Of a DNA stretch of 64,000 nt, positions 255 to 54,530 are shown one piece after another (position 1 is the first letter of the stretch; every line of letters begins with the position of its first letter). The notes under the pieces are model-generated. The model worked only from the letters and a program-made list of their open reading frames with translations, had not been told where the DNA came from and made no database searches. The DNA lies in the NCBI GenBank assembly GCA_944391715.1, contig CALXUP010000005.1, positions 4,277-68,276 of the forward strand, read 5' to 3'. This stretch comes from an uncultured Alphaproteobacteria bacterium (lineage in GTDB: Bacteria; Pseudomonadota; Alphaproteobacteria; RF32; CAG-239). The translations under genes were made by a program, and so were the position numbers.

Positions 255-2195
255 ATGAATATTCTCGAGCTGCAGAACATCAACAAATTTTTCGGACAGG
301 GAGCGAATCGCGTTCATGTGTTAAAGGGCATAAACCTGACAGTTGAAAAAGGCGATTTTGTGGCCATTATCGGGCAATCCGGCTCCGGAAAATCGACCTT
401 AATGAATATTATCGGCTGCCTTGATACTCCGACATCCGGCTCTTACCGTATTAACGGCATTGAGGCCGGGAAAATGGATCGCGACCAACTGGCCGAACTG
501 CGCAGCCGAACTTTTGGCTTTATTTTTCAGCGTTACAATCTGCTCACCAGTCTAAACGCTCGTGAAAACGCCGCCCTGCCTGCTATCTATTTGGGGATGG
601 GCGCGGAAGAACGGACGCAAAGGGCAGTTGAACTCTTAAAACGTCTTGAACTCGGCAACAAACTCCGTAACAAGCCAAACGAACTTTCCGGCGGTCAACA
701 ACAACGCGTGAGTATTGCCCGTGCTTTGATGAACGGCGGGGAGATTATTCTGGCGGACGAACCGACCGGTGCCCTGGACTCAAAAAGCGGCGAAATGGTG
801 ATGGAGATTATTAAGGGACTGCACAAGCAGGGACATACCATTATTCTGGTTACGCATGACAGCAAAATTGCCGCCCAGGCCAGCCGGATTATTGAGATTA
901 AAGACGGCGAAATTGTTTCGGACGAGAGAAAAACTTCTGATTTTTATAAGATTGAAGAAGAAGTCAGAAAATTTAAGCGGAGTAAACTGGAAACTTTTAA
1001 ATACCGCTTTGCCGAATCGTTCAGTATGTCTATCCACGCCATTTTGGCAAACAAAATGCGCTCGTTGCTGACGATGCTCGGCATTATTATCGGTATTGCC
1101 TCGGTGGTTTCGGTCGTGGCGCTCGGTAATGCCTCACAGGCCAAGATTATGGAACAGATCAACTCCATGGGAACAAACACCATCGACATTATGCCCGGAA
1201 GCGGTTTTGGTGATATGCGATCCGGTAAAGTTAAAACACTGAAGGTCAGCGACTCGGACTATTTGAGTAAGCAGGGTTTTATTGATAATTCCACGCCCAG
1301 CGTTTCCGGCAGCGGCACGCTTGTTTACGGCAATACGTCTTCAACGGCACAGCTGAAAGGCGTCGGCGCGTCTTTCTTTGATGTCAAAGGACACAAAATT
1401 GCCCTCGGCCGGATTTTTACACAAGACGAGGTAAACAATATTGCCTCTGTCGTCGTGATTGACCATAACACAAAAAAAGAGGTGTTTGCCGACAATCCCA
1501 ATCCTATTGGCGAAATTGTCATTTTTAACAAAAAACCTTTGAAAATCATCGGTGTAACGGAAGAGGAAAATAACCCCGGCCCCCGGGCTGACGCGATGAA
1601 CCTCTGGGTGCCTTATACAACAGCAATGTATAAAATCAACGGCAGTACAGATATTAATACCATTACGGTCAAAATTTCGGATAAGGTTAATTCTCAGGTG
1701 GCGGAAACGAGTATTGAAAATATCCTAACGTCGCTGCACGGCAAAAAAGACTTTTTTATGATTAACAGCGACAGCATTAAGCAAACTGTTGAAAGCGCCA
1801 CCAATACCATGAAATTTCTGATTGCCAGCATTGCGGTTATTTCCCTGATTGTCGGCGGTATCGGCGTGATGAACATTATGCTGGTTTCGGTTACCGAACG
1901 GACGAGGGAGATCGGCATCCGAATGGCCATCGGCGCCAAGCAGGCTGACATTTTGCAACAGTTTCTGATTGAGGCGATTTTAATCTGCCTGGTCGGCGGC
2001 TTTATGGGAGTGGCGTTATCTTTGCTTATCGGCTTTGGCTTTAACACTTTTTCCGAAGAGTTCGGAATGATTTTTTCAACCGCCTCAATCGTGCTGGCTT
2101 TGGTCTGCTCGACGGGTATCGGAATCGTTTTTGGATATATGCCGGCGAAAAACGCTTCCAACCTTAATCCGATTGACGCTTTAGCGAGTGAATAA
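255..2195 (+). CDS. macB: MacB-type ABC transporter with fused ATPase and permease (macrolide/peptide export family)
   Basis: Walker A GQSGSGKST, ABC signature LSGGQQQRV, Walker B ILADEPTGALD, then a large periplasmic domain and C-terminal FtsX-like TM helices; start taken at MNILELQNINKFF. Confidence 0.85.
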   Translation: MNILELQNINKFFGQGANRVHVLKGINLTVEKGDFVAIIGQSGSGKSTLMNIIGCLDTPTSGSYRINGIEAGKMDRDQLAELRSRTFGFIFQRYNLLTSLNARENAALPAIYLGMGAEERTQRAVELLKRLELGNKLRNKPNELSGGQQQRVSIARALMNGGEIILADEPTGALDSKSGEMVMEIIKGLHKQGHTIILVTHDSKIAAQASRIIEIKDGEIVSDERKTSDFYKIEEEVRKFKRSKLETFKYRFAESFSMSIHAILANKMRSLLTMLGIIIGIASVVSVVALGNASQAKIMEQINSMGTNTIDIMPGSGFGDMRSGKVKTLKVSDSDYLSKQGFIDNSTPSVSGSGTLVYGNTSSTAQLKGVGASFFDVKGHKIALGRIFTQDEVNNIASVVVIDHNTKKEVFADNPNPIGEIVIFNKKPLKIIGVTEEENNPGPRADAMNLWVPYTTAMYKINGSTDINTITVKISDKVNSQVAETSIENILTSLHGKKDFFMINSDSIKQTVESATNTMKFLIASIAVISLIVGGIGVMNIMLVSVTERTREIGIRMAIGAKQADILQQFLIEAILICLVGGFMGVALSLLIGFGFNTFSEEFGMIFSTASIVLALVCSTGIGIVFGYMPAKNASNLNPIDALASE

Positions 2196-3558
2196 GATGA
2201 AGAAAAATATGTTTAACATACTGCTTTTTACAACTACGTTGCTGGTTTCGGGCTGCGCGACGGTTTCGCCTTACCCCTCCGACACGGCGGATGAGCTTAA
2301 TTATACCCGGGAAGTGCGGGAAAAATACAAGGCCAACGCTGACTGGTGGAAAGAATATGGCAGCAGCGAGCTCAACCGACTGGTCGATTTGGCTTTGGCG
2401 AACAATCCGGATTATCTGAAGGCCGCCATTAACATCAATAAAGAACTTTATAACTTAAACATTACAACGGCAGACCTGTTTCCGACGCTTTCCGGAAATT
2501 TAAACACTTCTTCCCAACGGCGGATTGATACCGGAGACAATTTTTCAAACAGCTTTTCCGGAGAGGCCGGGCTGAGTTATGAACTCGACCTTTACGGCAA
2601 AATCAGAAAACTGCAATCCGCGCAGGAATTTGAATATCAGGCCACAATCATGGACAAGGAAACGGCGCGGCTGAGCCTGATTAACAGCGTTGTCGACCTG
2701 TATTTTAATCTGGAATATCTGCAAAATACCATTGATGTTACCAAGAAGAACATCAAGGCTTATGAAGACATTCGCAATATTACCGAGGCAAAATACAAAA
2801 ACGGCAAGGCTGATGATTTGGAATTTCTGGAATCCAAGCAGAGTCTTTTATCCGAGCAAAACCGCCTGCTGGAGCTGGAAACCCAGTTCAAAGAGATGGA
2901 AACGAGCCTGAAAAATATTTTGAATATCCGGCAGGAAGAGCCGCTTGAGATCAAATTCAGCGATATTCTTGACCAGAAAACGCTCGGCGTCAACCTTGAT
3001 GTTCCGCTTTCGGTTCTGGCAAACCGTCCTGACCTGCTGGCCAGCCAGTATCGTTTGGAAAAGGCTTTTAAAAATCTGGAAGCCGAAAATACAAACTGGT
3101 ATCCGGGTATCTCTTTGCGTGGGGCTTTAGGTTCTTCTTCCGACAAAGCGCGCACGACGTTTGAATTTCCGTATATTTTGGGAAGCGTAGCGATTGACCT
3201 GCCGTTTTTGGACTGGACGCGCGTGAAAAACAACATTAAAATTTCGGAAGCGGATTATCAGATTGCGGCCATTGATTTTAAAGACACGCTCAATCAGGCC
3301 GTTAACGAGGTGGCTTATTATTACTTTGCTTACGGCAAAGCCACGGAAAGTTTTGATAATATTCAGGAAAATTATCAGAATTCTGTTAAAATTACCCAAT
3401 ATTACAAAGACCGCTATAATAACGGCAAGACGGAGTTTCGCGACTATCTGCAGGCCATTTACAGCGAAAATTCCCTCCGGAAAAACCTGATTCAGCAAAA
3501 GTATCAGATTATCAATTACGAGAACTACGTTTACAAAGCCATGGCCGGGAAGTATTAA
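2188..3558 (+). CDS. Outer membrane efflux protein (TolC/NodT family) partner of MacAB
   Basis: Lipoprotein-like N-terminus (LLVSGCA); two OEP-type repeats; 8-nt overlap with the macB 3' end. Confidence 0.8.
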   Translation: MNKMKKNMFNILLFTTTLLVSGCATVSPYPSDTADELNYTREVREKYKANADWWKEYGSSELNRLVDLALANNPDYLKAAININKELYNLNITTADLFPTLSGNLNTSSQRRIDTGDNFSNSFSGEAGLSYELDLYGKIRKLQSAQEFEYQATIMDKETARLSLINSVVDLYFNLEYLQNTIDVTKKNIKAYEDIRNITEAKYKNGKADDLEFLESKQSLLSEQNRLLELETQFKEMETSLKNILNIRQEEPLEIKFSDILDQKTLGVNLDVPLSVLANRPDLLASQYRLEKAFKNLEAENTNWYPGISLRGALGSSSDKARTTFEFPYILGSVAIDLPFLDWTRVKNNIKISEADYQIAAIDFKDTLNQAVNEVAYYYFAYGKATESFDNIQENYQNSVKITQYYKDRYNNGKTEFRDYLQAIYSENSLRKNLIQQKYQIINYENYVYKAMAGKY

Positions 3559-46212: not shown

Positions 46213-46755
46213 CTACTCAAGATTTTTTAACTTTTGGCGAATTTCCATCAGAATATTTCCAATGTTGTTTTCGCCGACATAAGAGCCGTCTACTTTGCAG
46301 ACGCCCCAATAAATGTCGCCTGAGGTATTAAGCTTTACAATCTCCCGGTCGCCGGTCGCCAGAAGTTTTTGCCCCAAGTCTTTGTTGCCGTAAAACTTTT
46401 GCCAAAGCAGATCATACATAATCTTGTATTTCACGTTCTTCCAATCCGGCGTTGTAGCGTGTGTTACATACTTTTTGGCTTCTTCCGGTCTCATTCTTGA
46501 AATTTTTCGTTGAATGGCGGGGTCTGCGATTTTTGCGGCCTGATAAGCAGTTTCGACATTGTCAAAAGGAATACCGTTCAATTGAATCACAATTTTTTCA
46601 GGATATGCATTGCTTAAGAAATGATATTCTTCAACATAAAAGTTTACAATCGCTTCCTGTTCACTGGTCTTAAATTGAAATCTTTGTGTTTTCATTTTGA
46701 TAAAATTTAAAATTATACGAATAAAAATTTTGTTTATTCTCGTTATAAACACCAC
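46213..46755 (-). CDS. NADAR (YbiA-like) domain protein
   Basis: GIPFDNVETAYQAAK...W...K...M..LL..KF pattern typical of YbiA/NADAR. Confidence 0.6.
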   Translation of the reverse strand: MVFITRINKIFIRIILNFIKMKTQRFQFKTSEQEAIVNFYVEEYHFLSNAYPEKIVIQLNGIPFDNVETAYQAAKIADPAIQRKISRMRPEEAKKYVTHATTPDWKNVKYKIMYDLLWQKFYGNKDLGQKLLATGDREIVKLNTSGDIYWGVCKVDGSYVGENNIGNILMEIRQKLKNLE

Positions 46756-46830
46756 GGCGGCTTAATTGTCAAGCAAAATTCAATCTCATCTTAAAAAAGG
46801 AACCCCTCGAAAAAACGAGGGGTTACCTGA

Positions 46831-48039
46831 TTATTGGGACCGGTTTTGCCAATATTGCAGCTCTTTTTGCATATTATGCCGGGCTGTTTCTTCCAACATT
46901 TCCTTAAAGAACGGAAGGTGAAAGATTTCCGCCTCCAAACAATTTTGCAAAAAAGATTTCCGGCCGGAAGCAAAAGCTTTTTCATTAAGTGCGGGATATT
47001 CATTCCGAATACCGAGGCAATATCTGCCGTAATTGAGTTCATCGCCCAAGATTGCCATATCAATATCGTTTATCAGTTTTTCGGGTACTGTCTCTCTTGA
47101 CATTTTCGGAGGGTGCACCGTAGCACGAATCAGTTTGGCTACGAGGTCTTTCTTCTGGTTGATATACAGTCTGCCGATGATTTTTGCGATTGATTTCTCC
47201 TCCGCATTATCCTCTCCCCAAACATAATCATGATAAAACCAGGCAAAAAGGAACGGCTCTTTCGGAATATTTTTATGCTCGCCGGATAAGCGGCAGAAAA
47301 TATTAAAAAGATTTATTCCATAGGCCAGGTGGCTCAGATTATGCCAGGGACGGTTTTCATAGGCTGCGCACAAGTCATTCCAGGCATTTTCCGGTTGACC
47401 GTCAAAGTAGCCGGGAACAGTTTCGTGATAAGCCTCGATAAACGTTTTTTTCAGGCATTTCTTCATCATGGCATTATGCACCCTCGGGGCAACATATGGC
47501 ATGGCGGCAATATATTCTTCCAACTTACAGAGGTTTCTGAAAGCAGAGGAAGAAATATAGGTCAGATTTTCCTGCGGAACAGGAATCAAATCCATCACCA
47601 ATGAACGACGGCGGACGGCCAGAAGTTGTTTGTTGATGATTGACTGATACATTTCATCGGCATCGTCTCCGACGATCCGTTTTCCCCGAATCAGCGCTGT
47701 TGCCCCATAATATAATGCGGCATCAACGGTCAGGCAATCATAAGAAACAATATCAAGGCATCCGGGATCTGCTTCCAGGCGGGCCAGAGCTTTTTCTTCC
47801 GATACAGAAAAAGCGTATCCGCAAAAACGGCGGTGCTGCCAAAGATTCAAAAAATCCTGCAGGCTCTGTCGTACCAGTTCTTTTCGGTCTTTTATCCCAA
47901 ACAGATGTTTTTTCTTGTCAGGATTTTCGCCGATACCGACAATCACTTTGTCATAAGAACACAAGGCTTCGCAAACAATTCGGAAATGTCCGACGGTAAA
48001 AGGATCAAAAGATCCGGCATAAAAAGCTATCTTTTCCAT
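46831..48039 (-). CDS. coaD: Phosphopantetheine adenylyltransferase (CoaD) domain fused to a C-terminal HD-type phosphohydrolase-like domain
   Basis: N-terminus AFYAGSFDPFTVGHFRIV...DKVIVGIGENPDKK...ALIRG...YISSS aligns to PPAT; C-terminal half carries WHNLSH...FYHDYVW...DIDMAIL (H..H, HD, D). Confidence 0.65.
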   Translation of the reverse strand: MEKIAFYAGSFDPFTVGHFRIVCEALCSYDKVIVGIGENPDKKKHLFGIKDRKELVRQSLQDFLNLWQHRRFCGYAFSVSEEKALARLEADPGCLDIVSYDCLTVDAALYYGATALIRGKRIVGDDADEMYQSIINKQLLAVRRRSLVMDLIPVPQENLTYISSSAFRNLCKLEEYIAAMPYVAPRVHNAMMKKCLKKTFIEAYHETVPGYFDGQPENAWNDLCAAYENRPWHNLSHLAYGINLFNIFCRLSGEHKNIPKEPFLFAWFYHDYVWGEDNAEEKSIAKIIGRLYINQKKDLVAKLIRATVHPPKMSRETVPEKLINDIDMAILGDELNYGRYCLGIRNEYPALNEKAFASGRKSFLQNCLEAEIFHLPFFKEMLEETARHNMQKELQYWQNRSQ

Positions 48040-48109
48040 ACAAAAAATAATTTAATTAATAATTCTTTTAAGAAACTCGTATTTTATGCCGGGATTTTAT
48101 TATGTCAAG

Positions 48110-48811
48110 CTATTTACGCAAATCAAAATCAGAAAAACTTTGCTGCAAATATGCCGTCAGTTCGGGATTATTGAAAAACTGCTCGCATTGCCAGTCCTGC
48201 GTTACGGTATCCGACGGCACCGGGCGGTATTTTTGCAAATGGTAGCTTTTGACACCGCGCTTTTTGAGTTCTTCGGCAATGGCATAGATATCTTCTATGT
48301 TCAAAATGCGGGGATCGCAGGTGGTGCGGCATTCAAAGGCGATTCCGCTGTCCAAAAGCAGCTGCAGGCTTTCCTGCGCTTTGGCGAGATGGTTGGCTCC
48401 GCCGACGGCTTTTTGATATTTTTCTTCAACAAAAGGCGCTTTGATATCAAAGCCGACCCAATCCAGCAGAGGCAGAATTTTTTTCAGATGTTCCGGACGG
48501 TAACCGCCGGTATGCAAACCGATTTTATATCCCAGAGCTTTAACTTCTTTAATTTTTTCTTCCAGCGAATCCTGCACCAGCGGTTCTCCGCCGCTAAAAA
48601 CGACGGCATCCAGAGCCTTTGTCCGTTTTTGCAAAAACTCAAAAATCACTTTCCAGTCATGATTCCCGTTCTGCCCGATTTTTTGCAGTTCGGTATTATA
48701 GCAAAACGGACAGCGCCAAGGACACCCCTGCAGAAAAATAACCGCAGCGACCTGTCCGGGATAATCAACCAGGCTGAAACGTTCAATGCCGCCGATATTT
48801 ATATTTTCCAT
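48110..48811 (-). CDS. nrdG: Anaerobic ribonucleotide reductase activating protein (radical SAM)
   Basis: CPWRCPFCYN radical-SAM motif; immediately downstream of nrdD. Confidence 0.8.
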   Translation of the reverse strand: MENINIGGIERFSLVDYPGQVAAVIFLQGCPWRCPFCYNTELQKIGQNGNHDWKVIFEFLQKRTKALDAVVFSGGEPLVQDSLEEKIKEVKALGYKIGLHTGGYRPEHLKKILPLLDWVGFDIKAPFVEEKYQKAVGGANHLAKAQESLQLLLDSGIAFECRTTCDPRILNIEDIYAIAEELKKRGVKSYHLQKYRPVPSDTVTQDWQCEQFFNNPELTAYLQQSFSDFDLRK

Positions 48812-48891
48812 GTCTTACCTCTTATAAAAATCCCCGGTATGATGAAAGATTATCCTACCGGGGATTGTTTTTTTGACAAAGCTTTTAAGAA

Positions 48892-49089
48892 TTACTCAGC
48901 TGCAACATCCATTGCATCAAATTTTACGGCTTTGCTTTCGCAGAAGCATACACGGGAGTAAAACTCAGATTTTTTGCCCTTATTGAACTCGGAAACCGGA
49001 CGGTGATAACCCATTACTCTGGTCCAGATTTCGCAGGGTTGTCTTTCTTCATCGCTTAATTTTACATCTTCAAAATTAACAGTATTCAT
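48892..49089 (-). CDS. Stand-alone glycyl-radical domain protein, corresponding to the NrdD C-terminus
   Basis: MNTVNFEDVKLSDEERQPCEIWTRVMGYHRPVSEFNKGKKSEFYSRV... carries the RVxGY glycyl-radical fingerprint; GGAG RBS 7 nt upstream of the ATG at 49089; nrdD stops 32 nt upstream. Confidence 0.6.
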   Translation of the reverse strand: MNTVNFEDVKLSDEERQPCEIWTRVMGYHRPVSEFNKGKKSEFYSRVCFCESKAVKFDAMDVAAE

Positions 49090-49120
49090 TTCTTTCTCCA
49101 TTTGTTGATTGAATTTTACT

Positions 49121-51196
49121 CTATGCAACTTCTTTTCTGGAAGCTGCGGCTCTTCTTTTTTCTGCCTTTTTCTCTTCATCACAGATCGGGCAATATTTAT
49201 GTTCACCGGAAATGTAGCCGTGTTTCGGACAAATCGAGAACGTCGGCGTAATGGTGACATAAGGCAGTCGGTAGTTGGTCAGAACGCGGCGAACAATGTC
49301 GCGGCAGACCTTGGCTGATGAAACTCTTTGACCCATGTACAGGTGAAGTACCGTACCGCCGGTGTATTTGGTTTGCAGTTTTTCCTGCAACTCCAAAGCC
49401 TCGAACGGGTCATCAGTGTAGTTAACCGGCAGCTGGGACGAGTTGGTATAATACGGATTTTCTTCTGTCCCGGCTTGCAGGATTCCTTTAAATCTCTTCT
49501 TGTCTTCGCGGGCAAAACGGTAAGTCGCACTTTCGGCAGGCGTGGCTTCCAGATTATACATATGCCCGGTTTCTTCCTGAATTTTTACCATTCTGTCGCG
49601 GATATGATTCAGGAATCTTTCGGCGAAATCTTGGCCCCATTCATCTGCAACATTGTGCTCGTCATTGGTAAAGTTGCGAATCATCTCGTTAATGCCGTTA
49701 ACACCGAAAGTCGAGAAGTGGTTGCGCAAGGTGCCGAGATAACGTTTGGTATACGGGAACAAGCCGTTGTCAATGAGTCTTTGAATAACTTTGCGTTTGA
49801 TTTCCAGAGAAGTTTTGGCCAGTTCCAGCAACTCGTCAACGCGGTTCAACAAGCCATGCTCGTCGCCTTTGTAAAGGTATCCCAAACGGGCGCAGTTAAT
49901 GGTAACAACGCCGATTGACCCCGTTTGCTCGGCAGAACCGAACAAGCCGTTGCCTTTGGCCAGAAGCTCGCGCAGGTCAAGCTGCAGGCGGCAGCACATT
50001 GAGCGAATCTGCCCCGGTTTTAAGACGGAATTGATAAAGTTCTGGAAATAAGGCAGGCCGTATTTGGCTGTCATTTCAAACAAGAGCTCAGTATTTTCAT
50101 CTTCCCAAGGAAAATCAGGAGTCATATTGTAAGTCGGAATCGGGAAGGTGAACGGACGGCCTTTGATATCGCCTTTCATCATAACCGAAATATATGCTTT
50201 GTTAATCATATGCATTTCTTCGGTCAGATCTCCATAAGTGAAGTCTTGCTCAACACCGGCAATCATCGGATGTTTGTCGCGCAGGTCTTCCGGGCATACC
50301 CAGTCAAACGTAAAGTTGGTAAACGGTGTTTGAGAACCCCAGCGGGACGGAACATTCAGGTTATAAATCAGTTCCTGGAAAGACTGCTCAACCTGCTCAT
50401 AAGTCAAATGGTCTACGCGGACATACGGTGCAAGATATGTGTCTACGGAAGAAAATGCCTGAGCGCCGGCCCATTCGTTTTGCAGAGTGCCCATAAAGTT
50501 GACCATCTGGCCGACAGCGGCAGACAGGTGTTTGGCCGGACCGGCTTCCGCTTTACCCGGAACACCGTTAAAGCCTTCATGCAACAGGTTTTTCAACGAC
50601 CAACCGGCACAATAAGCGGCCAACATATCCAAATCGTGAATATGAAAATCGCCGTTGCGGTGTGCTTCACCGACAGCCGCCGGATAAACATGGCTCAGCC
50701 AGTAGTTGGCCGTAACCTTGCCGGAAACGTTCAAAATCAATCCACCGTTAGAGTATCCCTGGTTGGCATTGGCGTTAACGCGCCAGTCCAGTTTTTCCAG
50801 ATATTCATTGATGGAGCTTTCAACATCAACCATGACCTTTTTATCAGAACGCATACGGTTGCGCTGGTCACGGTATAAAATATAAGCTTTGGCTGTTGCA
50901 AAATAGTTGGCAGAGATCAGAACCTGCTCGACAATATCCTGAATTTGTTCAATGGAAGGAAGAGACTCCGTAAACTTATGCTTCATAACCTTTAAGACCT
51001 GAGCAGTCAAAAGCCAGCTTTCCTCTTCGCCGAACTCGCCCGTCGTCGTACCGGCTTTGTTTATAGCGTTAAAAATTCTGGTGTTGTCAAACGGGGCTAA
51101 GGTACCATCTCTTTTAGTAACACTGTCAAAAGGGATGTTCTCGGCAATTTTGCTCTGAGAAATTTCGTTATCGTTCACGGACATATCTTCGCTCAT
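49121..51196 (-). CDS. nrdD: Anaerobic ribonucleoside-triphosphate reductase (class III) large polypeptide, lacking the glycyl-radical C-terminus
   Basis: ATP-cone N-terminus (VTKRDGTLAPFDNTRI), class III core, C-terminal Cys-rich Zn-ribbon (CPKHGYISGEHKYCPIC) then stop; start taken at MSEDMSVNDNE (51196) because the track ORF's N-terminus runs through non-coding-looking NrdR boxes. Confidence 0.85.
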   Translation of the reverse strand: MSEDMSVNDNEISQSKIAENIPFDSVTKRDGTLAPFDNTRIFNAINKAGTTTGEFGEEESWLLTAQVLKVMKHKFTESLPSIEQIQDIVEQVLISANYFATAKAYILYRDQRNRMRSDKKVMVDVESSINEYLEKLDWRVNANANQGYSNGGLILNVSGKVTANYWLSHVYPAAVGEAHRNGDFHIHDLDMLAAYCAGWSLKNLLHEGFNGVPGKAEAGPAKHLSAAVGQMVNFMGTLQNEWAGAQAFSSVDTYLAPYVRVDHLTYEQVEQSFQELIYNLNVPSRWGSQTPFTNFTFDWVCPEDLRDKHPMIAGVEQDFTYGDLTEEMHMINKAYISVMMKGDIKGRPFTFPIPTYNMTPDFPWEDENTELLFEMTAKYGLPYFQNFINSVLKPGQIRSMCCRLQLDLRELLAKGNGLFGSAEQTGSIGVVTINCARLGYLYKGDEHGLLNRVDELLELAKTSLEIKRKVIQRLIDNGLFPYTKRYLGTLRNHFSTFGVNGINEMIRNFTNDEHNVADEWGQDFAERFLNHIRDRMVKIQEETGHMYNLEATPAESATYRFAREDKKRFKGILQAGTEENPYYTNSSQLPVNYTDDPFEALELQEKLQTKYTGGTVLHLYMGQRVSSAKVCRDIVRRVLTNYRLPYVTITPTFSICPKHGYISGEHKYCPICDEEKKAEKRRAAASRKEVA

Positions 51197-51256
51197 TCCT
51201 TCGTTATTATTAGTTATAAAAAACAAAATTGTTTGTGTTATCACCTGATAACAAGC

Positions 51257-51306
51257 ATACAATATATAGTATTAACAAAATGTAAATAAGACTAGATATA
51301 GTATGC
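51257..51306. promoter_or_regulatory. Two NrdR-box-like 16-mers spaced 32 bp, upstream of nrdD
   Basis: atacaatatatagtat (51257-51272) and agactagatatagtat (51289-51304) each match the NrdR consensus acacwatatatwgtgt at 13/16; 32-bp centre-to-centre spacing is typical. Confidence 0.45.
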
Positions 51307-52117
51307 ACAGAAAAATTTTTTATTTCAAAATTCTTAACGCGTATCATCTTGAATATGCTGATATTCTGAGCGAAATATATGATGCAAACAAGGGCAAAAA
51401 AATTCTTTTTCCGGCTTGACATTGCTATCTTGCTATAATTCCACCAAAAAAAAATTTTTTTAATAGTGGATAAAAAGATTAACCTTTCTTAACAAAAAAA
51501 ATATCATTATTTTTCAACGTTATAGATTCTTGACGTAATCAACATATTTGTACACAAGGGGCACAAAAAAAGCTTAAATTTACAAAAAACATTTTCGGTT
51601 TCAGAAGCATCCTCACAAGATATTGTGTTTTATATGGATTCGAAATACAGAATCAGGAAAAGGACTCGGTCTTTTGGTAAAAAGAAGCAAAATTTTTGAG
51701 AATCGATTGGTGTTTTTTCCTTATCTCTAAAATTCACTTTTTATTTATTATTCTTTTTCTTATTTCTTGTTTTTTATAATTTATTTTTATTGTTACTTTT
51801 TGGGTGCAAAGAAGCTTTTTCTTACTTTTGCTTGACCAAAAGTAAGCAAAAGTCAATCCCAACCTCATTTTCTAAGCTTTCAGCCCAAAGTTAAAGTCGC
51901 TACGCTCCAATGCTCTGTACTTCACTATTACCCCTTTGGGCCAAAAGCTAAGAAATCATTCGGTAATCGGGCTGGTCAACTCCCCCGCCCCTCAGGCTTG
52001 AGGGGAGAGGGGCTTCACTTTCGGTTTTTGCTCCAAAACCTAAGCTATTCGCAAAGGGCACCCAATCGTGCCGGATGAGGGATTGTGCATTAAAGTTTTG
52101 TCATTCTCGGGCTTTCT

Positions 52118-52527
52118 TTTCTTATGTCATTGCCGGACTTGACCTGCACGGCAGGCGCGCGGCAAGTTGACAGCACTGTGCCACAGAGGCCGCGTTGCTA
52201 TGGCGGGGTCTGTGAATGGCGTTGTACTTTGAAGGGTGGATTCCTGGTATCTTTTTCTTACGTCATTGCCGGGCTTGACCCGGCAATCCACGTTAATAAA
52301 TTAGCCTTATTGTTGATCTGGATCCCCGGGGCGGTGCCCGGGGATGACATAATAAAAAACACAGCTCGGGGATGACGAGAAAAAAACACGACCTGGGGAT
52401 GACTATAAAAAAGAGAGTCCGGCAATGACCGGTGCGACCGGTGGCGCTCAATCGGTAACATTGTGCCCTGAGGATCGCGTTGCTCCTGCGGGATTTGTGA
52501 CGAGCATTGTGCTTTGAAGTTACTGCC
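52118..52527. repeat. Duplicated MITE-like unit (A at 52118-52247, B at 52257-52527) with shared ends and short inverted termini
   Basis: Both units start ttcttaYgtcattgccggRcttgacc and end in related about 60-nt segments (gaggNNcgcgttgct...ctttgaag); unit B carries an extra about 155 bp bounded by gtcattgccgg / ccggcaatgac inverted repeats. Confidence 0.5.
52340..52420. repeat. Three tandem 26-28-nt direct repeats (ggggatgac-N-A-rich)
   Basis: ggggatgacataataaaaaacacagctc / ggggatgacgagaaaaaaacacgacct / ggggatgactataaaaaagagagtcc, preceded by palindrome tccccggg gcggtg cccgggga. Confidence 0.55.
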
Positions 52528-52595
52528 AAGAATAGTCTTTAGCATCGATGAGTTTTCTTTCTACCACCTAGACTATTCTCCTTAAAAATCAACAT

Positions 52596-52625
52596 GAAAA
52601 AAAGCACTCCGGAGAGTGCTTTTTT
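52596..52625. terminator. Hairpin terminator of the TolC-like lipoprotein gene (bidirectional)
   Basis: aaaaaaagcactc cgga gagtgcttttttt. Confidence 0.55.
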
Positions 52626-52628
52626 TGT

Positions 52629-54530
52629 TTAGTACCGCGGACGGGTTTCTATTTCTTTGCCGATTTCACCATTGGCAATGTAATCATCCGCACAATTTGT
52701 TCCGCGGCAGCGTTTCAGCACCGTAGCATTCCGGCCTTTGGTCAAACCTCTGACCTGCATTGACGGTACATAGACTTCATCGACAATAATCTTAAACGTA
52801 ATATAATTAACATTGCCGTACTCATCTATAATATAGACCTTCACATGATAGGTTCCGCCGTCTTTCGGCATCGGCGTTCCGTAGAACGTCATTGTTTTTT
52901 CATCAAAGGTCAGCCAATCCGGCAGCGGGCTGTCATCTATCAAGCCGGCTTTGAACGTCAGATTACCGCGGGCATTGAGATCTTTCAGAGCATCTTCCGG
53001 AATGCTATAGAGATAATCTTGTCCGGTTTCCAGTTTTTGGTCAGGAACATCTTCCGTCGACAAATTAACCGGCGGGCGTTTAGACGGCACGTTCAACAGA
53101 TACGGGCGGTTGTCCGGCAGGAAATCGCCATCGCGCCATTTTTCCAGCGTTGTATGCAGATAGACGGCGATTTTAGACGGTTTTTCTCCCAGCATATAAT
53201 AAGGCAGCGCATCAAGCCCCAGCGCAGCATAAAGGTTTCCGAGCGAGGCCTGAAGTTCGATATAAGCCTTGGAAGCTTTGACCTCGTCGGCAATGGCGCG
53301 GGCAGCCTCGAGCAAAGATTTCGAATCGTGACTACCCAGTTTTACCGTAATATCTTCGGCAATGTCTTCCGATACATTGGCGATTTCAATATTAATCTGA
53401 TAATCTTCCATCGCCGACATATAAGCAGCCCAACCGACATACAGTTGGCTTAAAACCAGGTTGGTCATCCGCTGGCGGCGCAAGGCTTCCAGCTCGCCGG
53501 TCCGGGGGTTTTTGACATCTTCAAAAACATGATAGCCGATTTCCTGAGCTTTGCGGCTCCAGACTTTATTATAATAAGCCGGATTGCTTTGATAATCGTT
53601 TTGCGTGGTTGACTTGAACTCCTGAATGGTAAACTCCAGGTTCTCGTCAATATTCACCATATCACGCATTTTGAGTTCCGGGCGGTTGGTCAGAGCCAGC
53701 CATTCCATATCGGCCAGCGGCGTGCGGATATCCGGCAGGGCAAAATTGCCGTACAACTTGCCGACCAGTTTGTATTCCGTTGCCGGATGAAAACCCATTA
53801 AGGCGGCCAGTTTGGTTTCGGCCGTTTCCATTCCGCGTTTTAACTCGGACAAGTTTTTAACGGCTTCCATATATTCGCGCTTTAACACCAATTTATCTGT
53901 CGGCAGATACTGATTTAATTTTGCAAGGTCTTTGGCCTGAGCATTCAGCTCGTCAACCTCCAGCGTCAAGACCTCTATCATATCATCAATCACCGGCAGC
54001 AGACGCTGTGCCGTCAGAGCCTGCCAATAAAGCACGCGGGTTTCCTGCAGCAGATTGTGAATAACCTTGCGGCTCTGCTCAAAAGCCAGATTTTTGCGGT
54101 ATTCCTGGTCGACGGTCTGATAATAAACCGTGCTCATATCCAAAAGGTTCCAGGCCAGTCGGAGCTCGGAATTGGCATCGGACAGGGAATCGGTGCTCAG
54201 GTAGCCGGCCTGCCCCATAATCTCGGGAATCTGGTTGACCGGAGATTTTCCGGCCTTTATCAAACTTTCTTCATAACTGACAACGCGGCGGGTGAAGTTA
54301 TATTTCAAGGCCAGCGCCATTGTCATATACATATCTATCGGCTTTGAAATTTTGCGCGGCTGGTTCAAATACATATTCTGCATATCCACATCGGCGCGGA
54401 TTGCGCTGTCCCAATCGGAATAAGTCGCCGATGATACGGTTGTTTCGCTGACGGAATATTCTTCTTCGCGCGGGCCGCAGGAAACAACAAAAAACATGCC
54501 CAAAACCAAACATGCCAATATTTTTTTCAT
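52629..54530 (-). CDS. Outer-membrane-factor (TolC/NodT)-like lipoprotein with a C-terminal Ig-like (putative He_PIG/cadherin-like) domain
   Basis: Lipobox FVVSCG; two OEP-like repeats (LAWNLLD..., VLYWQALTAQ...); C-terminal DDSPLPDWLTFDEKTMTFYGTP motif; no adjacent ABC or MFP genes. Confidence 0.6.
   Translation of the reverse strand: MKKILACLVLGMFFVVSCGPREEEYSVSETTVSSATYSDWDSAIRADVDMQNMYLNQPRKISKPIDMYMTMALALKYNFTRRVVSYEESLIKAGKSPVNQIPEIMGQAGYLSTDSLSDANSELRLAWNLLDMSTVYYQTVDQEYRKNLAFEQSRKVIHNLLQETRVLYWQALTAQRLLPVIDDMIEVLTLEVDELNAQAKDLAKLNQYLPTDKLVLKREYMEAVKNLSELKRGMETAETKLAALMGFHPATEYKLVGKLYGNFALPDIRTPLADMEWLALTNRPELKMRDMVNIDENLEFTIQEFKSTTQNDYQSNPAYYNKVWSRKAQEIGYHVFEDVKNPRTGELEALRRQRMTNLVLSQLYVGWAAYMSAMEDYQINIEIANVSEDIAEDITVKLGSHDSKSLLEAARAIADEVKASKAYIELQASLGNLYAALGLDALPYYMLGEKPSKIAVYLHTTLEKWRDGDFLPDNRPYLLNVPSKRPPVNLSTEDVPDQKLETGQDYLYSIPEDALKDLNARGNLTFKAGLIDDSPLPDWLTFDEKTMTFYGTPMPKDGGTYHVKVYIIDEYGNVNYITFKIIVDEVYVPSMQVRGLTKGRNATVLKRCRGTNCADDYIANGEIGKEIETRPRY

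Follow-up and report, generated by a model that had tools for sequence, protein, structure and literature searches.

A conserved small gene between nrdD and nrdG carries a predicted glycyl-radical domain of class III ribonucleotide reductase

Class III ribonucleotide reductase (RNR) is the textbook case of an enzyme which stores its glycyl radical on the catalytic chain itself. In an uncultured Alphaproteobacteria bacterium the locus for this enzyme raises the question of where the radical is kept, because the nrdD reading frame ends before the glycyl-radical motif and this motif appears on a small open reading frame (ORF) of its own, located between nrdD and nrdG. Is this one gene broken by an error or by decay, one protein made by recoding, or are these two genes? 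The window that we analysed is a stretch of DNA of 64,000 nucleotides (nt) from assembly GCA_944391715.1 (contig CALXUP010000005.1, positions 4,277 to 68,276). We conclude that it very probably harbours a three-gene operon, nrdD(core)-grd-nrdG, for a class III RNR whose glycyl-radical domain is a separate, independently translated subunit of 65 amino acids (aa).

The features of the locus are collected in Table 1. An earlier note on this DNA, made from the letters alone, had recognized the layout. We confirm on the minus strand that the nrdD frame ends just past the Cys-rich ribbon, with TAG at 49121-49123; the RVxGY motif is indeed found on a separate small ORF of 65 aa, in the form RVMGY and with a GGAG site of its own, and the hairpin with a T-run which separates this ORF from nrdG is real (minimum free energy -22.9 kcal/mol, z -3.25). 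Several counts had to be corrected. The spacer measures 31 nt instead of 32, the ribosome-binding site reads GGAG-N6-ATG and not GGAG-N7-ATG, and the small product has 65 aa instead of 66 (66 codons including the stop). Furthermore, 19 aa follow CPIC and 23 aa precede RVMGY, for which 16 aa after the ribbon and 24 before the motif had been given.

Table 1. Features of the split locus in the window, followed by the orphan loci in other genomes and the phage-like loci that encode the small protein
Feature	Position	Strand	Details
nrdD core	49121..51196	-	ATG 51196 to TAG 49123-49121, 691 aa; ATP-cone, class III RNR barrel, zinc ribbon
C-terminus of the 691-aa core, read from the window		-	ends ...CPKHGYISGEHKYCPICDEEKKAEKRRAAASRKEVA, then stop; longer form ...FSICPKHGYISGEHKYCPICDEEKKAEKRRAAASRKEVA, then stop
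ATP-cone domain, core residues 25-113	50858..51124	-	Pfam PF03477, 82.7 bits
Finger-loop cysteine pair C401-C402 in RSMCCRLQ	49991..49996	-	read from sequence
Zinc ribbon C656-x2-H659 ... C669-x2-C672 (CPKHGYISGEHKYCPIC)	49181..49231	-	predicted metal site, from sequence
C-terminal tail of the core, 19 aa (DEEKKAEKRRAAASRKEVA)	49124..49180	-	extra relative to fused NrdD
Intergenic spacer between nrdD and small gene, 31 nt	49090..49120	-	Shine-Dalgarno GGAG 49099-49096, 6 nt before ATG
Small glycyl-radical gene, 65 aa	48892..49089	-	ATG 49089-49087 to TAA 48894-48892; sequence MNTVNFEDVKLSDEERQPCEIWTRVMGYHRPVSEFNKGKKSEFYSRVCFCESKAVKFDAMDVAAE
Predicted radical Gly27 of the small protein (RVMG27Y)	codon 49011-49009	-	
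Terminator-like hairpin between small gene and nrdG	48823..48866	-	11-bp stem AAUCCCCGGUA/UACCGGGGAUU, then U5
nrdG, radical-SAM activase, 233 aa	48110..48811	-	80 nt downstream of the small ORF
Two NrdR-box-like palindromes, 32 bp apart	51257-51272 (ATACTATATATTGTAT), 51289-51304		upstream of nrdD
Orphan GTDB loci	L030, L032-L035, L037, L043, L045, L047, L050, L052, L054, L057, L058, L061, L065		
IMG/VR phage-like loci L095-L174	e.g. L099:3501-3644, L103:3501-3641, L145:3501-3647		48-87 aa, 54-88% identical to the small protein of the window

The core is matched by the NCBIfam model NF006126, 'ribonucleoside triphosphate reductase', with 1118.6 bits (cut-off 548), and Pfam NRDD (PF13597) covers it at profile positions 2-533 of 562 (E 1.5e-178). 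Its AlphaFold2 (AF2) model matches the class III RNR structures 9d3x, 8p2c, 4coi and 1hk8 with Foldseek E values from 1e-28 to 1e-16. C401 and C402 are invariant among 71 aligned cores, and so are C656, H659, C669 and C672 of the ribbon, a segment that aligns with the CPVC ribbon of T. maritima NrdD. A double-Cys finger-loop motif with a preceding Met has been described (PMC9669993), and by homology C401/C402 would be the presumed thiyl-radical site facing the glycyl radical. The RVxGY motif itself was sought on the 691-aa core and is not there; the chain stops at the TAG. The tail behind the ribbon is conserved in the nrdD frame among relatives (...K[ED]VA or ...NVA, each followed by the stop) and is modelled by AF2 as a helix of moderate to low confidence (block values of the predicted local distance difference test, pLDDT, of 85, 74 and 44). 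In some relatives the core tail ends in a Cys-rich motif directly before the stop (ACSC, AACCS, GPCCGG).

The small protein is covered by Pfam NRDD at profile positions 531-562 (32.9 bits, gathering threshold 26.2). NRDD is its only Pfam match and NrdD models are its only NCBIfam matches, and both scans were negative for homology to the Gly_radical family (PF01228) of the pyruvate formate-lyase (PFL) type. A phmmer search of PDB sequences with the small ORF alone gave chance matches only, the query being too short. When aligned to T. maritima NrdD (4COI), the end of the core (...CPICDEEKKAE) corresponds to residues ~606-615 and the small protein (IWTRVMGYHRPVSEFNKGKK...) to residues 615-649. 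Thus, the two pieces align contiguously at residue 615 and the break sits at the boundary between zinc ribbon and glycyl-radical loop. Compared with the fused T. maritima protein, ~12 residues were gained on the core tail and ~20 at the N-terminus of the small protein, which has in addition acquired a C-terminal extension of ~18 residues, with a terminal AAE conserved in the gut clade. The N-terminus M-x-x-I-N is conserved across relatives, and Cys19 (ERQPC) is found in nearly all of them. Purifying selection on the small ORF is strong: the median ratio of nonsynonymous to synonymous substitution rates (dN/dS) is 0.07 for 332 pairs with finite dS, taken from 38 distinct gut-clade genes over the 40-codon core of the ORF, with synonymous sites saturated against most relatives. 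Many relatives' small subunits bear additional cysteines in the C-terminal extension (CFCE, CGCNC, SCNCE, CACAAE); a metal site or a redox-active pair bridging both chains is a possible role for these and for the cysteines of the core tails. The product of the third gene matches the equivalog model TIGR02495 (NrdG2) with 199.3 bits against a cut-off of 131, as well as Radical_SAM and Fer4_12 of Pfam.

How widely is the break conserved? Counted over independent contigs from NCBI, ENA and Logan assemblies, the identical 691-aa core (P0270) occurs on 45 contigs and the identical 65-aa protein (P0510) on 32. The nearest GTDB relative, an uncultured gut alphaproteobacterium (L012), shares 90.3% DNA identity over 6.7 kb, has the same break and encodes a small protein 100% identical to that of the window. 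A scan of one genome per GTDB species yielded 592 confirmed stretches, the best 80 of which were classified together with context loci, giving 91 loci. The nrdD stop lies between the zinc ribbon and the Gly motif in 73 of them, 16 have no nrdD ribbon in the 600 nt upstream, and two read through. The alignment of orthologues, a check proposed in the earlier note, thus shows the split retained in relatives from 100% down to ~55% identity. Relatives that encode a contiguous NrdD, which that note had named as contradicting its reading, were not what the comparison showed: the break is conserved and it is the relative frames of the two ORFs that differ. The small ORF is in frame 0 with nrdD in 24 of the 73 split loci, in frame +1 in 17 and in frame +2 in 32. 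Loci of frame 0 have one to three stops, and many loci close the small frame before the nrdD stop. The spacers between the two genes range from -13 (overlap) to +191 nt, ATGA overlaps included, and a single intergenic base changes the frame relation between L004/L005 and L006, whose small proteins are identical. A Shine-Dalgarno-like (SD) motif is found 6-10 nt before the ATG in 62 of 64 operon-type loci. The five context loci have the same order of nrdD (686-698 aa), small gene and nrdG, and often share a He_PIG gene upstream. Gene structure, conservation, independent translation signals, selection and family assignment are in this way direct observations.

From these we infer an enzyme which assembles non-covalently, is activated on its small subunit and can have this subunit replaced. 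ATP-cone, zinc ribbon and the barrel with its Cys401/Cys402 finger loop would come from the core, and Gly27 of RVMGY from the small subunit. NrdG together with S-adenosylmethionine would generate the radical on the small subunit by removing the H atom of Gly27, and the Gly27 loop would be placed inside the core barrel beside the finger-loop cysteine, as the covalently bound domain is when NrdD is fused. In place of the covalent link, the core tail of 19 aa and the ~20-aa leader of the small protein may act as docking elements. Oxygen cleaves a glycyl-radical protein at the radical glycine. Because the cleavage occurs at this position, only the small chain would be sacrificed, so that after exposure to O2 just the 7-kDa subunit would be lost and could then be replaced.

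Several points weigh against this interpretation. That the 7-kDa protein is made, binds to the core and bears the radical is deduced from sequence, and the advantage of a replaceable subunit from analogy. The AF2 modelling of core and small protein in concatenated form gave a mean pLDDT of 32.5 from the single sequence; with a cores-only alignment the mean was 70.6, with the core folded and residues 693-756, the small part, below 30. This alignment held rows for the core and none for the small part, which left the docking uninformed. The finger loop (400-411) is of low confidence in the model, as one might expect when a partner is absent. In the window, furthermore, the frame of the small ORF, which is +1 to that of nrdD, stays open as far upstream as 49260, and one 1-nt indel in the A-rich stretch 49124-49180 would fuse both ORFs. 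Finally, two of the 91 loci read as one frame, namely L067 (a contig of the metagenome-assembled genome (MAG) MFD03044) and L070 (Massilia sp. H-1, CP087969.1). In these two the 'linker' retains the Met-leader of the small gene, and nrdD of L070 is fragmented elsewhere; they are probably indel errors, or possibly secondary re-fusions.

The open frame is what speaks for a recent pseudogene or a sequencing or assembly error, in which the gain or loss of one nt in the A-rich sequence behind the zinc ribbon (GAAAAAG, AGAAAAAAGAAG) would have broken a contiguous nrdD. Since no stop interrupts the +1 frame between 49260 and the end of the small ORF, the sequence of the window alone cannot exclude such a simple frameshift, but the comparative data do. 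The linker of the hypothetical fused protein (...KKEEPQLPEKKLHRVKFNQQMEKEM...) is unconserved, whereas the tail in the nrdD frame (...SRKEVA, then stop) is conserved. The same stop and the same start recur in the identical proteins on 45 and 32 contigs, the break is present also in relatives whose frames no single indel can join, and the low dN/dS is that of a gene under constraint. An error or a recent loss is therefore extremely improbable. The argument of the earlier note that the extra residues on both sides speak against a plain frameshift is wrong for this window; its conclusion was nevertheless right and follows from the comparison. The decaying pseudogene which it held as an alternative is contradicted by the conserved break, the purifying selection and the recurrence on independent contigs.

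A single polypeptide might also be made by programmed +1 frameshifting, by transcriptional slippage on an A-run or by stop-codon read-through, in which case the split would be only apparent. The A-runs just before the stop and the open +1 frame in the window would fit this explanation, as would the +1 relation common to 17 loci. However, the frame relation is 0, +1 or +2 depending on the relative, and therefore a conserved frameshift is ruled out. Many loci have stops in the small-ORF frame between the nrdD stop and the ATG, in L006 three of them in frame, the spacers vary widely, C. necator has a gap of 143 nt, and the orphan and phage copies described below have no upstream nrdD at all. The conserved tail, SD motif, ATG and N-terminus are, as far as sequences can tell, the pattern of two separately translated genes and are incompatible with a conserved recoding signal. 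Recoding is thus very improbable, and we regard this alternative, together with pseudogene and assembly error, as effectively excluded. The reading of the locus as a class III RNR in two polypeptides, already put forward in the earlier note, is supported by the conservation of the split, the purifying selection and the identical proteins on many assemblies.

The family is large. A search with the small protein gave 2,734 matches, the best 120 of which are all 55-111 aa long and 69-96% identical. In a library of representatives at 50% identity the same query matched 1,670 clusters with E<=1e-3, of which 309 reach E<=1e-10; among the best 150 representative clusters 149 are stand-alone proteins of 54-121 aa. 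The lone exception, P0132 (1,287 aa with 14 matched stretches), was rejected as a junk tandem-repeat protein. A glycyl-radical domain was sought in the 240 nearest cores, that is, in the best 120 matches to the window core and the best 120 to a distant Omnitrophota core (L082), and none was found. The former are all 656-707 aa long and the latter all 671-701 aa, except P0407 (1,012 aa) and P0466 (748 aa). P0466 was considered as a fusion and dismissed, its length being due to an internal assembly duplication, and it ends ...KAAREEAS. P0407 is a core of the split type and contains a LAGLIDADG_3 domain (PF14528), presumably an intein within the core. When clustered at 90% identity, P0510 falls into a cluster of 394 members, whose representative and most of whose members are a 234-aa NrdG. 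This is probably an artefact of gene calls which bridge the small gene and nrdG, and it could mask the small protein in surveys at the level of clusters.

The split is present in cultured Massilia, Castellaniella, Trinickia, Duganella, Undibacterium, Rugamonas and Afifella, and in MAGs of Sutterella, Actinobacteria, Omnitrophota, Parachlamydiales, Deinococcaceae, Elusimicrobia and Holosporales. Furthermore, the small protein is encoded on plasmid or chromid records of Ralstonia, Cupriavidus, Bradyrhizobium and Paracoccus, with the nrdD core just upstream of the small gene in the plasmid loci of the latter three. On pHG1 of C. necator H16 the RefSeq annotation lists a 676-aa 'ribonucleoside triphosphate reductase', a gap of 143 nt, a coding sequence of 66 aa named nrdD and an overlapping activase gene; the arrangement in Bradyrhizobium barranii is the same. 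The three H16 proteins have the accessions WP_011154155 (core), WP_011154154 (small protein) and WP_011154153 (NrdG), and the small gene bears the locus tag H16_RS32675. The nrdDG genes of pHG1 were reported to be necessary for denitrifying growth of C. necator H16 (PMC2864759). As these genes have the split layout, this organism depends under anaerobic conditions on a locus of the split type. The predicted radical site is on a separate, conserved small protein in this bacterium and in hundreds of others.

Not all copies of the small gene belong to such an operon. It lies between nrdD and nrdG in 63 of 80 GTDB genome loci and in all three plasmid loci, and in 15-16 of the 80 neither nrdD nor nrdG is found within 3.5 kb of it; these include several Sutterella and gut alphaproteobacteria. 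The neighbours of these genomic orphans are genes for a gyrA/parC-type topoisomerase subunit, an M20 peptidase, a phosphoribosyltransferase and a phage integrase. A relative is encoded on 281 IMG/VR stretches; among the 80 best of them, 77 lack both nrdD and nrdG in the surrounding 3.5 kb. In sampled loci, which are clearly phage, the small gene is found between endolysin plus reverse transcriptase and integrase (L098, L099), beside DNA polymerase and primase (L103) or beside a portal protein (L145). The phage-like orphans retain SD motif, ATG and the ERQxCE[IV]WTRVMGY core, with a shorter leader (median 17 versus 22 residues). Among GenBank phages (INPHARED, tblastn) there were two weak matches only and no close copy, so that the phage copies are so far metagenomic. 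One phage-like contig, L131, has two radical-SAM genes (743-3042) immediately upstream of its orphan small gene; we considered them as glycyl-radical activases and rejected this, as they resemble SPASM peptide maturases.

Such copies demonstrate that the gene is selectable away from nrdD, and they could mean that the small protein is an accessory, be it a regulator, a decoy or an emergency spare for another, fused NrdD or another glycyl-radical enzyme, with a core that is inactive or draws on a different radical source. Yet a Gly motif is absent from the core and from its 240 nearest homologues; the small gene has its place between nrdD and nrdG in the majority of the GTDB loci and in the three plasmid loci, and it sometimes overlaps nrdG; its sole family match is the C-terminus of NrdD and not the PFL-type Gly_radical; and the nrdDG locus of pHG1, reported as needed for denitrifying growth (PMC2864759), has the split layout. 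A purely accessory role is therefore unlikely.

With the small protein taken as the radical subunit, the orphan genes make sense only if their product works with a core that is encoded separately. In this indirect way the orphan and phage copies back a small module which would be detachable and act in trans. A more far-reaching proposal is that the 65-aa protein is an exchangeable, horizontally mobile radical cofactor which is consumed and replaced after O2 damage, and that temperate phages carry it to re-arm or boost the class III RNR of their host. We put this forward tentatively and consider it somewhat less than an even chance. If it is true, the split in its clade (denitrifiers such as Cupriavidus and Paracoccus, gut Alphaproteobacteria, Sutterella) would be an adaptation to oxic-anoxic boundaries, and the phage-borne orphans would represent a new kind of auxiliary metabolic gene, which provides a protein cofactor and not an enzyme.

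The surroundings of the operon offer some further observations. The hairpin before nrdG could be a partial terminator which reduces the dosage of nrdG. It is not conserved: relatives have 7 to 84 nt between the small gene and nrdG, and in C. necator and Bradyrhizobium these genes overlap. Therefore we do not count it as part of the mechanism. A palindrome scan with ACACWATATWTWGTGT and up to 3 mismatches (<=3) gave 9 matches where 2.35 are expected, four of them within 51223-51628, and the cluster upstream of nrdD occupies 51223-51304 and 51613-51628. The two palindromes of Table 1 overlap a weak sigma-70-like -35/-10 pair (51286..51259). By the consensus of the NrdR box these sites are candidate NrdR boxes, and their position suggests control of the nrdD operon by NrdR. 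Directly past nrdG, at 46213-48039 on the minus strand, follow genes for a 402-aa cytidylyltransferase-like protein and a 180-aa NADAR-domain protein; in L007 a NUDIX and NADAR pair is likewise found downstream of nrdG. These neighbours may point to a link with nucleotide or ADP-ribose metabolism. Upstream of nrdD, at 52629-54530 on the same strand, a 633-aa He_PIG (Ig-like) protein is encoded, which is syntenic in L001-L003, L007, L010 and L011. An Rfam scan of 47500-52700 gave no match.

No description of a split class III RNR was found in full-text literature searches, which leaves room for an earlier mention, and a 2026 review of glycyl-radical enzymes mentions no split class III enzyme. 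Both genes are already in RefSeq, under undifferentiated names for anaerobic RNR. The split is a widespread variant of a known enzyme class and not a new kind of system. The genome paper on C. metallidurans gives NrdDG as Rmet_5137 and Rmet_5139 and skips the gene between them (PMC2864759). If our interpretation is true, annotation practice would have to be corrected wherever 'NrdDG' is listed without the middle gene, as in this case, and the small subunit would provide a ready-made system for a long-standing mechanistic problem of glycyl-radical enzymes, namely the way in which the Gly domain moves out of the barrel to the activase and back again. It would further suggest a cheap route of repair after exposure to oxygen. 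The ideas of a replaceable subunit and of a supply by phages would be testable extensions of the split.

How does this enzyme compare with known systems? The canonical class III NrdD/NrdG pairs of E. coli, phage T4, T. maritima, P. copri and S. thermophilus have the same barrel fold, ATP-cone, finger-loop cysteines and zinc ribbon, and share the RVxGY motif and the adjacent radical-SAM activase. In every solved or described case, however, the NrdD chain itself ends with the Gly domain, whereas here this domain is a separate gene product. NrdD is described as an alpha2 homodimer (PMC5704485). The closest architectural precedent among RNRs is the split class II enzyme NrdJa+NrdJb of Pseudomonas aeruginosa. 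Its C-terminal functional module is the product of a gene of its own further downstream and works in trans (PMC5704485; PMC9669993); split RNRs are discussed for class II only in these papers, and split domains are regarded as possibly distinct to this class (PMC9669993). NrdJa+NrdJb is a B12-dependent class II enzyme whose detached piece is a Cys-rich zinc-finger/IscU-like reductant shuttle and not the radical site. A split of this type is not matched here, the core being of class III and the detached piece being the Gly-radical domain. The class I NrdA of Aeromonas phage Aeh1 is split by a homing endonuclease into two polypeptides which reassemble; there, the mobile endonuclease gene is inserted within the barrel, and the arrangement is restricted to one phage lineage. 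In contrast, in our case the pieces have no mobile gene between them, and the break, which coincides with a domain boundary, is widespread.

Functionally, the nearest analogue is GrcA/YfiD, the autonomous glycyl-radical protein that serves pyruvate formate-lyase and of which Y06I of phage T4 is a phage-encoded version. GrcA/YfiD likewise is a small stand-alone copy of the C-terminal glycyl-radical domain of a large enzyme and presumably docks into the barrel. It is homologous to the C-terminus of PFL (Pfam Gly_radical), whereas the small ORF described here matches NRDD only. The term 'spare part protein' stands in the title of PMC8683613. GrcA/YfiD backs up an enzyme which has a Gly domain of its own. 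The core described here has none, which would make the small protein indispensable and not a spare: the logic of replaceability would be the same as for pyruvate formate-lyase, only built in from the start.

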